24,219 nt of DNA from IMG/VR virus record IMGVR_UViG_3300037419_001314, positions 1-24,219 of that record. One strand, written 5' to 3'. The translations under genes and the position numbers were made by a program. This document shows, in pieces, positions 14,155 through 21,343 of this stretch. The notes under the pieces were generated by a model that worked only from the letters and a program-made list of their open reading frames with translations, was not told the DNA's origin and ran no database searches. This DNA is from a virus (taxonomy: Duplodnaviria > Caudoviricetes). Numbering within the stretch: position 1 is the first letter of the stretch; the number at the start of each line of letters is the position of its first letter.

Positions 14155-14316
14155 CCTAGCGTCACGGATCGCTATGCCGGCAGTCACGCTACGTGAAATT
14201 TAGTGATCTGCCTCAGACCGTTTAAACTGTGTGACACCCTTCCGACTCTCGCTGACACTTGAGGAAGATGGGCGCGGGCCCCGCTAGCTTCGGCTGGTCG
14301 GGGCCCGCTTTCGTTT
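14155..14316 (+). ncRNA. Candidate structured 3'-UTR-derived small RNA with an antisense loop
   Basis: Stems GTCAC/GTGAC, GGATCGCTA/TAGTGATCT, TCACG/CGTGA; CTTCC/GGAAG closes a loop that contains CTCTCGCTGACA; ends in a terminator. Confidence 0.5.
14274..14316 (+). terminator. Intrinsic terminator ending the replication/middle operon
   Basis: GCGGGCCCCG-CTAGC-TTCG-GCTGG-T-CGGGGCCCGC then TTTCGTTT. Confidence 0.8.
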
Positions 14317-14332
14317 ACCCTGATACTACGAT

Positions 14333-14361
14333 TGGACACGCCAGTCATGCTCCTGTATAGT
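14333..14361 (+). promoter_or_regulatory. SigA-type promoter
   Basis: TGGACA-N17-TATAGT. Confidence 0.65.
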
Positions 14362-14493
14362 TTGCGACGGATTGAACCACACGGCGAGCTGCGGCGGGGC
14401 CGGTAGGGGTTAAACCAACCCTGCCCATTTTCAGACCGGACCGTGTAAACAGCCTCTGTTACAAACCTGTGATCTGAATATTCGGGTTCTAGC

Positions 14494-14540
14494 TAGACGT
14501 TGATACTCGTATTGGGTAATGTTCTGTCTGTCAGCGAGAG
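14494..14540 (+). promoter_or_regulatory. Cassette promoter plus leader box
   Basis: TAGACG-N17-TAATGT then TGTCAGCGAGAG (14529-14540). Confidence 0.6.
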
Positions 14541-14565
14541 ACACCAACCCGAAGGGGAAACCGAA

Positions 14566-15474
14566 ATGGCAATCCAGACCCTCACCTGCCAGAACATTGA
14601 GTGCGGCAAGACTTGGACCCGGATTGCCACCGTAGGCCGTCCGCCGCTTTACTGCGACGACTGCAAGGGTAAGGCTTTCAAGGCCGAGGCTGAGGCGGAG
14701 GTTGCCACGATCGGTGACGCGCCGGTCCGCCACAAGGAATACGCAACCGTGATCGCCGTAGCCAAGACTCGCATTCCGGTCATGCTGGTAGGCCCTGCCG
14801 GTTCCGGCAAGACCACGATTGCTCGCCAGATCGCGGAAGACTTGGACCTGCCGCACTACATTGAGTCCTGCAACCCGCAGATGACCAAGTGGGATCTGAT
14901 GGGGTTCGTTGGCCCTAACGGGAACTACGTTCCCGGCATCATCCGTGACGCTTTCGAACACGGCGGAATTGTCCTGCTGGACGAGATGGACGCTTCGAAC
15001 CCGGCTCTGCTGGTCTCGATCAACAATATTGCAGCCTGCTCCGTGGGCGAGACCGTGAACTTCCCTGACGGAACTTCGATTCCGAAGCACGAGGACTTCA
15101 TCCTGATTGCCGGTTGCAACACCTTCGGTGACGGAGCTTCGGAGCAGTACGTTGGTCGTGAGGTTCTGGACGCTGCGACCCTTGACCGGTTCGCTTGCAT
15201 TGAATTCGGTTATGACGAAGCGCTTGAGCGTCGGCTTGCTGGTGACGACATGCGCGAGTGGGTTGGGTTTGTTCAGGCTGTGCGCGCCACTGTCGCCGAG
15301 CTTGGAATTGACCTGCTGGTCACGCCGCGCGCCACGATCAACGGAGCGAAGCTCCTGCGGGCCGGAATGGACCGTAAGACGGTTGAGGCTCTGACTGTCT
15401 GGAAGGGGGTTTCCCCGGACGCTAAGCGCTCTATCGTGGCTTCCCTGGCCCAGCGTCAGCGCTTCGCTTCCTGA
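14566..15474 (+). CDS. MoxR/CbbQ/CobS-like AAA+ ATPase with an N-terminal zinc ribbon
   Basis: C-x4-C...C-x2-C; Walker A GPAGSGKT; Walker B LLDEMD; LDAATLDRF; TPRA. Confidence 0.88.
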   Translation: MAIQTLTCQNIECGKTWTRIATVGRPPLYCDDCKGKAFKAEAEAEVATIGDAPVRHKEYATVIAVAKTRIPVMLVGPAGSGKTTIARQIAEDLDLPHYIESCNPQMTKWDLMGFVGPNGNYVPGIIRDAFEHGGIVLLDEMDASNPALLVSINNIAACSVGETVNFPDGTSIPKHEDFILIAGCNTFGDGASEQYVGREVLDAATLDRFACIEFGYDEALERRLAGDDMREWVGFVQAVRATVAELGIDLLVTPRATINGAKLLRAGMDRKTVEALTVWKGVSPDAKRSIVASLAQRQRFAS

Positions 15475-15484
15475 GGGTTTAAAC

Positions 15485-15506
15485 GGGGGCCGGGAAACCG
15501 GCCCCC
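15485..15506. terminator. Terminator-like hairpin
   Basis: GGGGGCCGG-GAAA-CCGGCCCCC, no T-tract. Confidence 0.6.
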
Positions 15507-15511
15507 ATAGC

Positions 15512-15559
15512 TTGACCTATACGTTGATCCTATGATTGAATCTCTCTTGTCAGCGGGAA
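15512..15559 (+). promoter_or_regulatory. Cassette promoter plus leader box
   Basis: TTGACC-N18-TTGAAT (atypical -10), operator at 15517-15527, TGTCAGCGGGAA at 15548-15559. Confidence 0.5.
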
Positions 15560-15581
15560 TTCGACTAGAAGGGCCGGAGAA

Positions 15582-16421
15582 ATGGCGATCATTGAGCGCA
15601 AGTGGAACAGCCTCGCGGAATTCATTGACTACGCGAGCGGGCCGTCCGCGATGCAGTTCGGGGACCGTTCTAGCCGTCGCTCTGACTCGTCTTACGGTGG
15701 CGGATTCTTCGGCACCGCGAACTACAGCGAGGCTGAGGCTCTGGCTTTCGCTTGGAAGGACGGCGCTGAGCGTATCGAGCGGGTACGGATTAAGGCCGCT
15801 CCGAAGGGTCAGCGGAAGCGCCAGGAAGCCACCCTTCGGGAGGTTGGCCCCGGAACCCTGAACATGGGCAATTACCTCACCGGTCACCCTCAGCCCTATG
15901 TGGTCATGACCGATGGACAGCGGATTAAGCCCGGTCGGAAAATCGTTCGAATCATGCTGAACGTCTGCGTCTCTGGTGGCGTTTCCGCCGCCACGATTGA
16001 GCGTCGTGGGGCCGGAGTTATGGCGCTGGCAGCTGCGCTTGAGGCTGCGGGCCGTCGCGTAGAAATCTCGGTCGGCATGGGGAATGGCTGGAAGAGCCAG
16101 GGTGATTTCTTGGATTACCGGATTCTCGTCAAGGGTGCCGCCGCGAAGCTGAACCCGCTTACGGTGGCTTTCGCTGTAGCTCACCCGAGCATGCTTCGCC
16201 GGTTCTTTTTCTCCGCTATGGAGCGTGAAGACGCTGCGACTCGCCGGAAGTTTGGGGCCCGTTCTGGTGGCGGTTACGGCTACGTGGCTGAGCTTGAGAC
16301 TGACGCTGACGTGATCTATCTCGGCGGGGCCATGATGTACGACTCGGCTTGGGAGTCTGACGCAGCTACGGCTAAATGGGTTCGTGAGCAGTGCGAGGCG
16401 CAAGGCGTGAAGTTCGCCTGA
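15582..16421 (+). CDS. vWA-like partner of the AAA ATPase
   Basis: IVRIMLNVCVSGGV beta-strand with a degenerate MIDAS, LEAAGRRVEI, AHPSMLRR; follows a MoxR-type ATPase. Confidence 0.6.
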   Translation: MAIIERKWNSLAEFIDYASGPSAMQFGDRSSRRSDSSYGGGFFGTANYSEAEALAFAWKDGAERIERVRIKAAPKGQRKRQEATLREVGPGTLNMGNYLTGHPQPYVVMTDGQRIKPGRKIVRIMLNVCVSGGVSAATIERRGAGVMALAAALEAAGRRVEISVGMGNGWKSQGDFLDYRILVKGAAAKLNPLTVAFAVAHPSMLRRFFFSAMEREDAATRRKFGARSGGGYGYVAELETDADVIYLGGAMMYDSAWESDAATAKWVREQCEAQGVKFA

Positions 16422-16426
16422 CCAGC

Positions 16427-16446
16427 GGGGGCCCTTCGGGGCCCCC
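16427..16446. terminator. Terminator-like hairpin
   Basis: GGGGGCCC-TTCG-GGGCCCCC. Confidence 0.65.
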
Positions 16447-16467
16447 AAAATTGGGGCCCGTTTAAAC

Positions 16468-16514
16468 TAGACATTGATCCTAGACGTTGATAGTGTCTCT
16501 CTTGTCAGCGAGAA
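16468..16514 (+). promoter_or_regulatory. Cassette promoter plus leader box
   Basis: TAGACA-N17-TAGTGT, tandem operators, TGTCAGCGAGAA at 16503-16514. Confidence 0.65.
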
Positions 16515-16538
16515 ACCCTCACAGGAAGGGCACCAGCC

Positions 16539-17189
16539 ATGAACGTCACCGCCACTCGGGAAGCCTGGCTCCGCACCGCGATTGACTACCTTCGCCCGGC
16601 TTTTCAGGAAATCGGGATGCCCCTGCCGAAGCAGATCTACATTTCGGTCGGTTTCGGTTTCGGCTCCCGCGCGGAGTCCAAGGAAATCGGCGGCCAGGCT
16701 TGGGCCCGCCGCGCGTCGGCTGACGGCGTTAACCACGTCTTCATCTCTCCGGCTATCGCTGACCCGGCTGAGGTTCTGGGCACCCTGGTTCACGAATTGA
16801 TTCACGTTGCGGATGACTGCCAGTCCGGCCATAAGGGCGAGTTTGCCCGCGCGGCCAAGGAACTTGGGCTTGAGGGCCCGATGACTGCGACGGTTCCTGG
16901 CGCTGAGCTTGCTGAGAGCATGGGCCAGCTGGCGGCTGCGATCGGCACCTACCCGCATGCTGCGCTTTCCACGGACGGCGCTGCCATTCTGGAAGGTGAG
17001 GATGAGGAAGACGGCGAGGAAGCTGGTGAGGCTGGCGGGAAGCTTCACTCCGGCCCGAGCAAGCAGGGCACGCGGATGTTGAAGGTTGTTTGCCCGAGCT
17101 GCGGATTCAACTTCCGCACTACTCAGAAGTGGATTGACAAGGGTCTCCCGACTTGCCAGGACGGAACCCTGTTCATCGTTGCGGACTGA
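16539..17189 (+). CDS. SprT-like zinc metalloprotein
   Basis: TLVHELIH, GHKGEF, C-terminal CPSCG...PTC zinc ribbon, acidic linker. Confidence 0.8.
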   Translation: MNVTATREAWLRTAIDYLRPAFQEIGMPLPKQIYISVGFGFGSRAESKEIGGQAWARRASADGVNHVFISPAIADPAEVLGTLVHELIHVADDCQSGHKGEFARAAKELGLEGPMTATVPGAELAESMGQLAAAIGTYPHAALSTDGAAILEGEDEEDGEEAGEAGGKLHSGPSKQGTRMLKVVCPSCGFNFRTTQKWIDKGLPTCQDGTLFIVAD

Positions 17190-17199
17190 CCGTTTAAAC

Positions 17200-17217
17200 G
17201 GGGCCCGAAAGGGCCCC
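17200..17217 (+). terminator. Terminator-like hairpin
   Basis: GGGGCCC-GAAA-GGGCCCC. Confidence 0.55.
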
Positions 17218-17235
17218 TCTCTGAGGGGATTTGAA

Positions 17236-17430
17236 ATGAACTGGACTTGGATTCGTGGCACGCTGGATAGCCGCCCGAAGGTTGGCCAGATTCTCACGTC
17301 TGAGGATGGGGACAAGCTGGAGGTAAGCCGGGTCGCGAATTACGGTTTCGCGGTCGGCAAGTGGGTAACTGAGTCCGGTGACGGCATGGAAGTCAGAGCG
17401 CATTACCGGCTTTACAGTGGAAGAGGATGA
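17236..17430 (+). CDS. Hypothetical protein (64 aa)
   Basis: GAGGGG RBS; MNWTWIRGTLDSRPKVGQIL... Confidence 0.6.
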   Translation: MNWTWIRGTLDSRPKVGQILTSEDGDKLEVSRVANYGFAVGKWVTESGDGMEVRAHYRLYSGRG

Positions 17431-17433
17431 GAC

Positions 17434-17462
17434 AGGGCCCCTGCGGGGGCCCTTTTTCTTTT
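17434..17462 (+). terminator. Intrinsic terminator
   Basis: AGGGCCCC...GGGGCCCT followed by TTTTCTTTT. Confidence 0.8.
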
Positions 17463-17600
17463 CCCGATGAGAGGCGCTGTGCGCCCGTCTGAGCGACTAA
17501 TAGGGGTTCCCGCGTAGCTCCGGACACTGGGCCAGTCCAAGCCGTTAGAAAGGCTCTCAGGGCTTCCAGAAATAGTCTCTCAAGCTATACGTTTAAACGC

Positions 17601-17629
17601 TTGCAGACCGTGCCCAATACGAGTAACGT
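17601..17629 (+). promoter_or_regulatory. SigA-type promoter for the structured RNA unit
   Basis: TTGCAG-N17-TAACGT followed by TCTCTTT, the same spacing as the other cassette promoters. Confidence 0.6.
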
Positions 17630-17636
17630 TCTCTTT

Positions 17637-17897
17637 GCGGGACGGTCCCGCAGCCCGAAAGGGCAAACCCCGAAAGGGGGTGGCCTAATGGCCGCCAACT
17701 CTGGTGTCACTTTCAAGCAGGACGGCACCGTGTTTTGGGTTCCCGCGTGGGCACCCGACCGGATTGTCACGCTGGCTTCCATGAAGCCGGGTGCCCGTAT
17801 CGTGGGGGGTCGCCCGCAGGGCTCGGAGGTATGGCATCCTTCGCTTAGCCGGTAACGGTGGCTGAAGCCCAAAAGAAAAGGGGCCCGAAAGGGCCCC
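17637..17897 (+). ncRNA. Candidate highly structured RNA (may also encode a 55-aa ORF at 17688-17855)
   Basis: About 10 hairpins or stems with GNRA loops, located between a promoter and a terminator hairpin. Confidence 0.5.
17880..17897. terminator. Terminator hairpin, possibly bidirectional
   Basis: AAAAGAAAA then GGGGCCC-GAAA-GGGCCCC. Confidence 0.65.
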
Positions 17898-17904
17898 TAA
17901 GGGC

Positions 17905-17952
17905 TTGACTGGTGGACTGAACCTATGATTGAGTAATCCCTGTCAGCGGGAG
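17905..17952 (+). promoter_or_regulatory. Cassette promoter plus leader box
   Basis: TTGACT-N18-TTGAGT; shares CCTATGATTGA with the 15512 promoter; TGTCAGCGGGAG at 17941-17952. Confidence 0.5.
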
Positions 17953-17967
17953 TATAGGAACAGGGAA

Positions 17968-18099
17968 GTGAGCAAGATGATTACTTGCCCGAATTGCGGC
18001 ACCCGGATCGGGACCAGCGGGAAGACTAAGCGACCGCGACACAAGCGGCGGGGAAGCTGGCTCCGGAAGCTGCTTCGCAAACTGGACCTCAAGGTCTGA
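17968..18099 (+). CDS. Small basic protein with CxxC (43 aa)
   Basis: MSKMITCPNCGTRIGTSGKTKRPRHKRRGSWLRKLLRKLDLKV. Confidence 0.55.
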   Translation: MSKMITCPNCGTRIGTSGKTKRPRHKRRGSWLRKLLRKLDLKV

Positions 18100-18117
18100 G
18101 GGGAGACCGTTTAAAAC

Positions 18118-18723
18118 ATGCGCAAGACTCGAAACCTTTTCCTGGCCCTGGCCGTCATGGTCGCTGGCTTCGGTGCCAGCGCTGGCACCGCTCACGCGGA
18201 AACCCTAGGCCAGTATCACTTGCCGATCGGTAAGACCGTGTGCATTGAGGATCACGGCTGGACGCTCTGGGATAACGTCCTTCCGAATATCGCTTGGCGA
18301 CTCCGGTCCAACTACATCACTGACGCTGTAGTGCTGGACAGCTGCGCCAGTTACCCGGATAACCAAGTGGTCACTATCGCCGTTAGCGACAGCCCGAGCG
18401 AGAATTACTGCGCCAGAACCGAGCGAGGCTATTACCTGAACGGAGTAGCCCAGGGCCGAACCACGATCCGGGTAAACAAGGCGTCCGTTTACTGGAATCA
18501 ATGCCACTCCACTTGGAGCCAGCGGGCTCACGTCATGTCTCACGAAATGGGCCACGCGCTAGGGCTGGTTCACTGCGACTGCGATAGCGTCGTCGCGGCT
18601 CCGCAGCGATTCTCTATCCTGTGGTTTACTGATCTGGATTACAGCAACCTTCGCCAGATCTATAGCGTTACCCGCACGGCTCTTCCGGTTCGCACCACCG
18701 TTAAGGCTCCCGTCATCCGTTAG
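18118..18723 (+). CDS. Secreted zinc metalloprotease (metzincin/matrixin-like)
   Basis: Sec signal peptide ending AHA; HEMGHALGLVH (HExxHxxGxxH). Confidence 0.85.
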   Translation: MRKTRNLFLALAVMVAGFGASAGTAHAETLGQYHLPIGKTVCIEDHGWTLWDNVLPNIAWRLRSNYITDAVVLDSCASYPDNQVVTIAVSDSPSENYCARTERGYYLNGVAQGRTTIRVNKASVYWNQCHSTWSQRAHVMSHEMGHALGLVHCDCDSVVAAPQRFSILWFTDLDYSNLRQIYSVTRTALPVRTTVKAPVIR

Positions 18724-18748
18724 TTTTCACTGAAAGGAAATACGACCA

Positions 18749-19000
18749 ATGGCTAAGACGCTTCCCGACTTTCCGGACCCGGCGAGTCAGCCGCTAGCGC
18801 ACACGCTTGCCGTGTATGCCGATACGCCGGACGACGAAACGGCGATTGCCGCCACTAGCAATGTCTACGGCAGGGGAGTCCGAACCGGACTCAAGTGGGG
18901 AGACCTGCGGAAGCTGCAAGCGAAGGTCGAAATTCTGGAAGCCCTCAAGGCTTCCCCGGACCTTAAGCGAGTTATCGATATGATGGAAAGTGGGATTTGA
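18749..19000 (+). CDS. Hypothetical protein
   Basis: AAAGGA RBS; 83 aa. Confidence 0.7.
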   Translation: MAKTLPDFPDPASQPLAHTLAVYADTPDDETAIAATSNVYGRGVRTGLKWGDLRKLQAKVEILEALKASPDLKRVIDMMESGI

Positions 19001-19003
19001 GAA

Positions 19004-19111
19004 ATGGCTAAGACCTTCCGTGGCACTGACAAGCAGGCCCTGAAGCGTGTCCGCAGGACTGACCGCCAGTTCCGGACGGCTCGCCGTACGACGCGCTACG
19101 CCGCCAGCTAG
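19004..19111 (+). CDS. Small Arg-rich peptide (35 aa)
   Basis: MAKTFRGTDKQALKRVRRTDRQFRTARRTTRYAAS. Confidence 0.5.
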   Translation: MAKTFRGTDKQALKRVRRTDRQFRTARRTTRYAAS

Positions 19112-19178
19112 CTTGCGATAGCCCTGGCAGTTTGGTAAACCAGACTCACTCGATAACCGATTAAAGGGAGTTGCCAGC

Positions 19179-19505
19179 ATGGCCCAGAAAGTTCAGATCC
19201 TGCTTGAGGATGACCTAGACGGGAAGCCCGCTGACGAGACTGTCAGCTTCGCCCTCGACGGGACGACGTACGAAATCGATCTGACCAAGGCGAACGCGAA
19301 GAAGCTTCGTGACGCTGTGGCTCAGTACGTCGGAAGCGCTCGCAGGGTGGGCCGGTCCGGCAGGGCCCCGGCTCGCAAGGCTGTCAGCACTGGCCCTGAC
19401 CCGAAGACGGTTCGGGCTTGGGCGAACGCCAACGGCTACGAGGTCCCGACGCGGGGCCGGATTCCGGCTGATGTGGTTGAGGCTTTCAAGGCTGCCGGAA
19501 ACTGA
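19179..19505 (+). CDS. lsr2: Lsr2-family nucleoid-associated protein
   Basis: MAQKVQILLEDDLDG, YEIDL, VRAWA..NGYEV..RGRIP. Confidence 0.95.
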   Translation: MAQKVQILLEDDLDGKPADETVSFALDGTTYEIDLTKANAKKLRDAVAQYVGSARRVGRSGRAPARKAVSTGPDPKTVRAWANANGYEVPTRGRIPADVVEAFKAAGN

Positions 19506-19506
19506 C

Positions 19507-19803
19507 ATGACTGACCGCTACACGGTCGAGCCCATCCCTGGCTTGGATTGGGTTTATGGCGTCTGGGATACCAAGGAAAACAAGCCGGTAGGTGGAGCGA
19601 CTTCCGATAAGGAAGCTGCTGAGCAGAAAGCGGCTGAGTTGAATAACGGGGCCCCTGGTCCTGGCTACGTGGATCAGGATCACGAAGACGACCCGGCTAC
19701 CGTCTTCAACCGGAGAGTGCAGGAAATACGTGAAGCCGCCGAGTCGTACGACAAAGCGGCCCAGAGATACATGAAGATGAAGCGAGACGACGACCAAGCT
19801 TAG
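19507..19803 (+). CDS. Hypothetical protein
   Basis: ATG 19507 just after the lsr2 stop. Confidence 0.65.
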   Translation: MTDRYTVEPIPGLDWVYGVWDTKENKPVGGATSDKEAAEQKAAELNNGAPGPGYVDQDHEDDPATVFNRRVQEIREAAESYDKAAQRYMKMKRDDDQA

Positions 19804-19811
19804 ATTAGGTA

Positions 19812-19858
19812 TTGCGTCCCCTATCAAGGTCTAGTAACGTTCCTCTTGTCAGCGAGAG
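19812..19858 (+). promoter_or_regulatory. Cassette promoter plus leader box
   Basis: TTGCGT-N17-TAACGT, inverted operator in the spacer, TGTCAGCGAGAG at 19847-19858. Confidence 0.65.
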
Positions 19859-19874
19859 GAAAGGGATTAGGCCA

Positions 19875-20093
19875 GTGGCACGCAAGCTCGACAACAGCCC
19901 AGAGGCAATCGCCAAGGATGCCGAAGCAGCAGGGCTGAAGGTCCAGAAGATCCGGCACGGCTGGTGGATTTGGTACCCACAGGGAAAGCCAGGTCCGGGC
20001 GGGCGGGACAAGGAATGGATCAGCCGGAACGAAGACATTCGGCGGGATCGGCTGAACAACCTAGCGGGAGCGAAGCGCCTAGGTATTCGCTGA
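19875..20093 (+). CDS. Hypothetical protein
   Basis: GGAAAGGGA RBS; MARKLDNSPEAIAKDAE... Confidence 0.6.
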   Translation: MARKLDNSPEAIAKDAEAAGLKVQKIRHGWWIWYPQGKPGPGGRDKEWISRNEDIRRDRLNNLAGAKRLGIR

Positions 20094-20096
20094 GGC

Positions 20097-20116
20097 AGGG
20101 CCCTTCGGGGCCCTTT
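20097..20116 (+). terminator. Intrinsic terminator
   Basis: AGGGCCC-TTCG-GGGCCCT followed by TT. Confidence 0.65.
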
Positions 20117-20508: not shown

Positions 20509-20748
20509 ATGAGCGAAACTGAGACCAGCGAGCAAAGGGCTTCGGCCTATCCGGACGATGCAACGGCTGTTGAGTTGATTGACCAGCTGCGAGACATGGC
20601 TAAAACGCTGGTCACTCTTGCTGACAGTTTCGAGAGCAGGTTCGGTCGCTGCGGTGCGATGAACGATGAGCGCATTTGCGGACTGTTCCCCGATCACAAG
20701 GGGGATCACATTTCCCTTCAAGGCGGCGCGACTTGGCGAGACAACTAG
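20509..20748 (+). CDS. Hypothetical protein
   Basis: 79 aa with C..C..H..H near the C-terminus. Confidence 0.6.
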   Translation: MSETETSEQRASAYPDDATAVELIDQLRDMAKTLVTLADSFESRFGRCGAMNDERICGLFPDHKGDHISLQGGATWRDN

Positions 20749-20762
20749 CAACCGCTCCATAC

Positions 20763-20810
20763 AAAACCCCCGACCTAGATTCGTCTAGGGACCGGGGGTT
20801 TTTCTTTATT
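20763..20810. terminator. Bidirectional intrinsic terminator
   Basis: AAAACCCCCG...CGGGGGTTTTT. Confidence 0.8.
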
Positions 20811-21017
20811 TAAAAGGGGTTTGGCTCGACGCCGGCCGCCGTTTAAACGTTGCCGCGAGCATCAGTTGCACCAGCTGGCGGACACTGGCTAGCCTGTGAC
20901 CAGCTGGGCCCGGTACCCCATGCCGGGAGGACTCGCCTCCGAGGGGCCAGGGCTGGACTGCCGTGGGAAATCAGCCGGAACTAGCTCAGGCCCCTCCCAG
21001 CGCCCCCAGAAACGACG

Positions 21018-21058
21018 AAAAGGCCCCCGACCCTAGAGACACCTAGGGCACGGGGGCC
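21018..21058 (-). terminator. Terminator of the lysis operon
   Basis: GGCCCCCG...CGGGGGCC with an A-tract on its + strand 5' side. Confidence 0.7.
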
Positions 21059-21076
21059 AACGTCTTAGAACGGCTC

Positions 21077-21343
21077 TCAGGCGGGCAGGCCCTCAGCGTC
21101 GTCCGCAACCTCAATCCGGCTCATGTCCGGCAGCGGATCAGCCGCGAAAGCCTCATTCGTCTTCCGGTTCTCGGTCCGCTGGACAGCCTCAGCGCCACCA
21201 ATCCCAAGCACAGCACCAACCACGCCCAGAATCAGGGCAACCGGCGTAGCGGGCAGGAAGAACGCCACCAGCGCCAGCACGGCAACAGTCACACCGTAGA
21301 CGCGGGCAGGGTTCCTCCGGACAAAATCAGCAACCTTGCGCAT
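21077..21343 (-). CDS. Holin
   Basis: Two TM segments, NPARVYG motif, directly downstream of the endolysin. Confidence 0.8.
   Translation of the reverse strand: MRKVADFVRRNPARVYGVTVAVLALVAFFLPATPVALILGVVGAVLGIGGAEAVQRTENRKTNEAFAADPLPDMSRIEVADDAEGLPA

Follow-up and report, generated by a model that had tools for sequence, protein, structure and literature searches.

The unit described here is an ordinary kind of phage cassette that encodes a new member of a small-protein family behind an unusual leader, predicted to be caged. Our preferred reading, to which we assign a probability of about one half, is that of a stand-alone gene for a soluble 55-residue protein, whose ~260-nt mRNA is predicted to fold over a very strong ribosome-binding site and would be long-lived and slowly translated. 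The initial annotation had proposed either a functional non-coding RNA (ncRNA), such as a decoy or mimic, or a tightly repressed mRNA of the kind known from type I toxins and RNA thermometers; our literature search found nothing on this unit.

The 24,219-nt stretch analyzed here (hereafter the window) comes from a soil actinophage that is uncultured and covers its early arm. The plus-strand early genes encode a repressor (408-1058), WhiB, an exonuclease, DnaB, an RNA ligase, endonuclease VII, a primase, a sigma-like factor, a class II ribonucleotide reductase, an AAA protein, a DUF7192 protein, a SprT-like protein and Lsr2, and the lysis genes run in from the right side of the window, convergent with these early genes. 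An IMG/VR contig 99.97% identical to the window represents the same phage and carries siphovirus-type head and tail genes; a serine recombinase (PF07508) was not found in this 86% complete contig, and a repressor is present. Close relatives are few: the ribonucleotide reductase is 64% identical to that of Streptomyces phages, the DUF7192 protein reaches 52% identity at best, and a neighbor-gene search for close phage relatives recovered the same phage only, with all other matches at 24-36% or at most 52% identity. Across the 4 of 11 DNA runs covered, one contig spans 17578-18051 without a difference, and none of the variants listed falls within the unit.

Two short motifs recur across the window. 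The repeat (C/G)CTA(T/G)ACGTT occurs in seven copies, all on the plus strand (2250, 4079, 12565, 14492, 15516, 16479, and 17584), with the degenerate copy at 17580-17599 overlapping a GTTTAAAC palindrome. This repeat resembles the stoperators of Cluster A phages, which are described as asymmetric 13-bp sites (PMC6550527, PMC3203893), and is a stoperator-like candidate operator, among more than one motif here that might play such a role. The GTTTAAAC palindrome, found in 12 exact copies (4741, 5332, 6915, 8560, 14220, 15477, 16460, 17192, 17591, 20139, 20841, and 22358) mostly at gene junctions of a genome with 58% GC, and as a variant, GTTTAAAA, at 18109, is likewise a candidate site for protein binding.

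From ~14,500 to 20,100, genes are arranged as promoter-gene-hairpin cassettes, and the unit with its 55-codon ORF is one of these. The sequence TTGCAG-N17-TAACGT, noted previously as a promoter, is present at 17601-17629 (plus strand), and this putative promoter has the layout of its sibling cassettes: the elements of the cassette at 19812 (TTGCGT-N17-TAACGT-TCCTCT) are spaced exactly, to the base, like those of the unit (TTGCAG-N17-TAACGT-TCTCTT), an arrangement also seen in two more cassette promoters. The layout held in common with the 19812 site supports the promoter of the unit and would place +1 near G17637. Five cassettes carry a TGTCAGCG box at +1, six bases 3' of the -10-like hexamer, which is absent from the 17601-17629 promoter, in agreement with the earlier description. 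Farther to the left, a terminator-like hairpin (17434-17463, plus strand) is followed by a T-tract (8 T among the 9 nt 3' of the stem) and would, from its sequence, block transcription entering from that side. The 13-mer TACTCGTATTGGG of the AAA promoter spacer (14504-14516, plus strand) recurs inverted within the promoter of the unit (17625-17613, minus strand), and an exact 12-nt direct repeat, GGGTTCCCGCGT, lies 5' of the promoter (17504-17515) and again within the ORF (17737-17748). The next cassette encodes a 40-aa CxxC and basic peptide with gene-like codons (17977-18099), followed by a metallopeptidase-like protein with a hydrophobic N-terminus (18118-18723).

The 55-codon ORF (17688-17855, plus strand) is almost certainly protein-coding. 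As previously counted, only 2 of its 55 codons end in A, and just 2 of 20,000 shuffles scored as high as its codon score of 0.174 (best of three frames). Its codon adaptation index (CAI) of 0.72 compares with 0.73 ± 0.08 for 306 gene windows (in-sample); stop-free shuffled frames gave 0.56, and 6 out of 23,018 of them attained 0.72. In-register antisense windows reached the codon score in 19 of 221 cases, and the antisense frame at the ORF itself scored -0.06. A word-indexed protein search matched the query protein alone, whereas an exhaustive phmmer search gave 30 matches, comprising the query, eight small relatives matched over their full length (the best at 63% identity, E 4e-14) and 21 long proteins (461-3861 aa, matched over several stretches, mostly in the N-terminal half) that were left out of the family. 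A profile search added two members, bringing the family to ten small relatives from metagenomes, one of them from a Streptosporangiaceae bin (P0060, which looks like a frameshifted P0028, was left out). The resulting 11 sequences, with pairwise identities of 28-81%, all agree in seven columns (P19, A22, P23, R25, A30, P43, and W49). In each of the ten relatives, substitutions were conservative beyond what neutral DNA drift would give (p < 0.05 in eight), a test biased because the relatives were found by amino-acid score and are not independent. The occurrence of this family in other metagenomes suggests that the unit is likely not an RNA-only gene.

The family has no name in the resources searched: none of nine members matched Pfam at E ≤ 1, profile searches gave best E-values of 0.11 (PHROGs) and 0.053 (PDB), neither a match, and a fold search with a low-confidence model returned nothing at E 0.001. 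The single-sequence model (pLDDT 64, pTM 0.41, the antisense ORF giving 57.8 and 0.12) gives no more than a weak hint. Similarity to the hybrid-binding domain of RNase H1, also considered, found no support in the profile search. The protein appears soluble, with a GRAVY of -0.13 and a best 19-residue hydropathy of 0.83, and no membrane helix was predicted in any of the 11 family members, whose highest hydropathy over 19 residues ranged from 0.37 to 1.48.

Nucleotide-level searches found no relative beyond the same phage. In tblastn searches with five members (phages) and one member (plasmids), no match had an E-value under 0.6, and no cultured phage was matched; an IMG/VR search for the DNA of the relatives returned the same phage only, as did a search with a leader pattern. 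The patterns used to look for the DNA of the relatives are blind to members with a one-residue insertion or another C-terminus. A blastn search against 50,697 phage records gave only matches of at most 35 nt among the 20 listed of 37 records, and a core-helix pattern hit 67 IMG/VR loci, none of them related save the same phage. Among the loci listed, the sole metagenome match considered as a relative (L096) proved to be out of frame within a 990-aa cellular gene, and four GTDB pattern matches were attributed to chance. Separately, a GGGCACCC repeat cluster with a common downstream motif, unrelated to the unit, was seen in ~13 IMG/VR contigs (L009, L015, L016, L020, L023, L025, L026, L033, L036, L043, L053, L065, and L072), with the cluster match at about 601-640 in most of them.

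What sets this cassette apart is its leader. The predicted fold of this 51-nt segment (17637-17687, plus strand, beginning at the putative +1) consists of a 5' hairpin and two GAAA hairpins without a single-stranded 5' tail, and amounts to -0.60 kcal per nt, compared to -0.12 to -0.18 in five sibling leaders that are nearly unfolded (z-scores of +0.8 to -0.4, next to -4.1 for the leader of the unit). The 11-nt Shine-Dalgarno (SD) sequence GAAAGGGGGTG (17672-17682, plus strand, 5 nt 5' of the ATG) is split between two hairpins. Against the anti-SD motif, it would form 11 bp at -19.6 kcal/mol, the strongest of 26 starts (runner-up -12.0), while the predicted cost of opening the start region, 22.4 kcal/mol, is also the highest of these 26 starts, some of whose start codons were guessed. 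The SD and ATG are thus predicted to be buried in hairpins, as the initial annotation had it, and the anatomy of a structure-locked small ORF is borne out by the prediction. Its "tight repression" is not: the very strong SD offsets the structure, and the balance of +2.8 kcal/mol ranks 7th from the top among the 26 starts, next to -2.9 to +2.6 in the sibling cassettes. Because the SD gain nearly offsets the opening cost, translation of the unit could be ordinary.

The concealment of the SD is predicted to be persistent. It is mostly paired at all transcript lengths of at least 60 nt, and both alternative 5' folds, separated by 1.9 kcal/mol, hide it. In the model, the SD opening cost falls smoothly from 19.0 kcal/mol at 10 °C to 10.8 kcal/mol at 55 °C and remains high throughout, with no weak SD hairpin melting at physiological temperature, which speaks against the RNA thermometer suggested as an analogy. 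Stable stems over the ribosome-binding site without a 5' tail are described as giving background-level translation in Escherichia coli (PMC5934652), and the 11-12 bp SD pairing of the txpA toxin mRNA has been described as a possible brake (PMC8167048).

Beyond the leader, the fold of the unit is uneven. As a whole (17630-17900), it is more stable than shuffled controls (z = -4.65, 0 of 200 as stable), an outcome in line with the original proposal. By part, the z-score is -3.7 for the leader, -0.39 for the ORF alone, -2.7 for 17742-17810 and -0.15 for 17810-17874; the leader, a single domain within the ORF and the end hairpin account for the modeled signal. Two other stretches of cassette size have z-scores of -1.8 and -2.6; when 81 tiles of 261 nt were compared, no tile fell below its energy and three had an equal or stronger z-score than the unit (10 shuffles each), and the 150-nt windows of the unit rank 22nd and 24th among 283. 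Intergenic regions at 1201-1350, 14160-14560, and 20701-21180 (z = -5.95, -3.6, and -4.8) exceed these 150-nt windows, and the ~430-nt stretch at the meeting point of the early and late genes may be a better ncRNA candidate than the unit.

The earlier statement that almost every base can pair was too strong, as the expected paired fraction is 0.67. All the helix arms it named exist in the sequence (base C17788 being counted twice), with very different predicted pair probabilities: 0.88-1.0 for GCCC-GAAA-GGGC, GGCC/GGCC, GGTGTC/GGCACC, CCCGCG/CGTGGG, TGGGCACCC/GGGTGCCCG, GGCTTC/GAAGCC and the end hairpin, 0.78-1.0 for CGGAGG/CCTTCG, a middling 0.24-0.44 for CCCC/GGGG, and only 0.15 for CCG-GTAA-CGG and 0.04 for GCCC-GCA-GGGC. 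The multibranch domain thought to be closed by TTTTGGGTT/AGCCCAAAA fares poorly, the closing helix having a probability of 0.05-0.12. In the full-length transcript the 5' hairpin has a probability of 0.12, because a competing long-range pairing is favored by 1.9 kcal/mol. Rfam 15 covariance models run over the whole window, including the suggested Ms1, 6S, Y RNA and phage motif families, gave no match at the gathering threshold; the sole leader match at E ≤ 10, a c-di-GMP-I-GGC riboswitch, scored 13.3 bits of the 59 needed and was rejected, as was a tRNA or tmRNA identity for the unit.

The hairpin at the end of the unit (17870-17898), 18 nt of which are identical to 17200-17217, had been called a terminator. 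The hairpin itself is well predicted, yet its T-tract lies on the minus strand only, which points to a leftward terminator that is also a likely 3' end for the plus-strand transcript; several other plus-strand gene-end hairpins of this phage likewise have no T-tract. Among the 26 hairpins listed, it is the sole one with 7 A 5' of it. The terminator-like hairpins at 17434-17463 and 17870-17898 have similar T-tails, both pointing inward, as if insulating the cassette.

Taken together, we propose that host RNA polymerase would initiate at ~17637, from a promoter built as in the sibling cassettes, and that exonucleases would be kept off the RNA by the hairpins at its extreme 5' end and its 3' end, as terminal hairpins are known to do. 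With the SD and AUG held by two hairpins and no single-stranded 5' tail for ribosome standby, initiation should be rare, and when the hairpins open, the 11-bp SD would let a ribosome capture the site. The likely purpose would be to keep down the amount of an early protein acting on a putative host target. In the screen reported for the phage Girr, toxicity was seen for 29 of 102 genes, among them 12 of unknown function that were mostly small (PMC11075535); because only this share was toxic, a host-acting role is for our protein a prior rather than a result. The strong hairpin within the ORF is left unexplained by this proposal.

The closest contender is an ordinary small gene with normal translation, whose hairpins would serve mRNA stability or represent a stock GCCC-GAAA-GGGC element, and whose SD compensates for them. 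The net initiation energy, near that of the sibling cassettes, is consistent with this, as are the recurrence of the GCCCGAAAGGGC hairpin at 17203 and 17883, the CCCGAAGGG hairpin in which the SD of the AAA gene sits, and an ORF fold that does not exceed its synonymous resamples (57 of 300). However, the leader is 3-5 times as stable per base as the five sibling leaders, and SD strength and occlusion are both extreme among the 26 starts, so that we regard this explanation as possible, if on the unlikely side.

Another alternative is that the unit forms a type-I-like toxin-antitoxin pair whose toxin is soluble. The 11-bp SD resembles that described for txpA (PMC8167048), the leftward terminator with its 7 preceding A overlaps the 3' end of the mRNA, a TATACT is found at 17956 on the minus strand, and the 5' hairpin is predicted to yield to long-range pairing, comparable to aapA1. 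Against these points, this -10-like element has no -35, the overlap is ~30 nt within a closed hairpin, none of the 11 family members has a membrane helix, no separate-locus antisense match longer than 14 nt occurs in the window and the rest of the contig (terminator hairpins aside), and a gap of just 1.9 kcal/mol separates the two 5' folds, both of which hide the SD; we regard such a module as improbable. It is tempting to speculate further on an actinophage module of this type, in which a new soluble 55-residue host inhibitor is encoded by a caged mRNA (txpA-style 11-bp SD, switching hairpins) that, having no TGTCAGCG box, escapes the control of the five sibling promoters and is checked by a short convergent RNA or by its own product on the internal hairpin; we consider this a long shot, of slightly better than one-in-ten standing.

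Alternatively, the RNA could have a dual function, encoding the peptide while its fold also acts, either as a decoy or as a site bound by a protein, which might be the encoded peptide itself. The hairpin domain within the ORF (17742-17806, plus strand) is more stable than all 500 synonymous resamples, and the 17742-17810 window, which was sized to fit the domain after the fold was seen, has the lowest energy and the second-ranked z-score among 775 coding windows; the tile comparison and the abundant stable RNAs described in related phages (PMC5712189, PMC10986025) point the same way. Nevertheless, z-scores of -3.5 or lower occur in 8 of the 775 coding windows, the multibranch closure is improbable, and blastn and pattern searches found no nucleotide relatives, leaving a second function doubtful. 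Finally, a pure ncRNA with an incidental ORF, to which the unit's own promoter, end hairpin, z-score of -4.65 and the precedent of Cluster A phages (PMC5712189) might point, is very improbable given gene-like codons, a conserved protein family, a well-placed 11-bp SD and no Rfam match; the decoy or mimic first proposed is thus not supported.

The unit is thus removed from the list of candidate ncRNAs, since it encodes a conserved miniprotein despite its strong fold, own promoter and end hairpin, and what remains is a small unnamed metagenomic protein family whose leader here seems designed for rationing the product. If the protein is toxic, it would be a candidate new inhibitor of actinobacterial growth, and if an antitoxin RNA exists, the unit would constitute a type-I-like module in an actinophage, for which a narrow literature search found no precedent.

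Among known systems, the unit resembles type I toxin mRNAs (Bacillus subtilis txpA/RatA and bsrG/SR4, Helicobacter pylori aapA1/IsoA1) in its ORF of <60 codons and structured SD, predicted here to be sequestered at a cost of 22.4 kcal/mol, and in a possible long-range 5' pairing and a 3' end that coincides with a convergent terminator. Some type I toxins are soluble, but the classic analogy drawn initially is weakened by a protein without membrane helix (GRAVY -0.13, family hydropathy 0.37-1.48, where a small hydrophobic membrane peptide would be expected), and the setting is the early arm of an actinophage. A search for an antisense antitoxin gave the leftward terminator and the TATACT -10 at 17956 without a -35. 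With a peptide that is not of the membrane kind and no clear antitoxin promoter, we do not file the unit as type I. The resemblance to txpA extends to an SD:anti-SD pairing of 11-12 bp in that mRNA (PMC8167048).

The phage itself is akin to the Cluster A kind (repressor, stoperator-like repeats, class II ribonucleotide reductase), and the unit shares an early promoter of its own with the Pleft ncRNAs of L5, D29, and StarStuff and the non-coding regions of Rhodococcus phage WC1. The Pleft RNAs are described as having no ORF above ~30 codons and none that is conserved (PMC5712189), whereas the unit carries a conserved 55-codon ORF with ten relatives, so it is not a Pleft-type RNA; the best match between the unit and the right end of L5 is 11 nt. 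Short genes in promoter-gene-hairpin cassettes are also a trait of the small early genes of unknown function in actinophages. The Start Associated Sequences of Cluster K, described as extending the pairing with 16S rRNA at the start (PMC3203893), likewise share extended 16S pairing with the unit, yet they are a repeated 13-bp motif, whereas the SD of the unit is single-copy and buried in hairpins.
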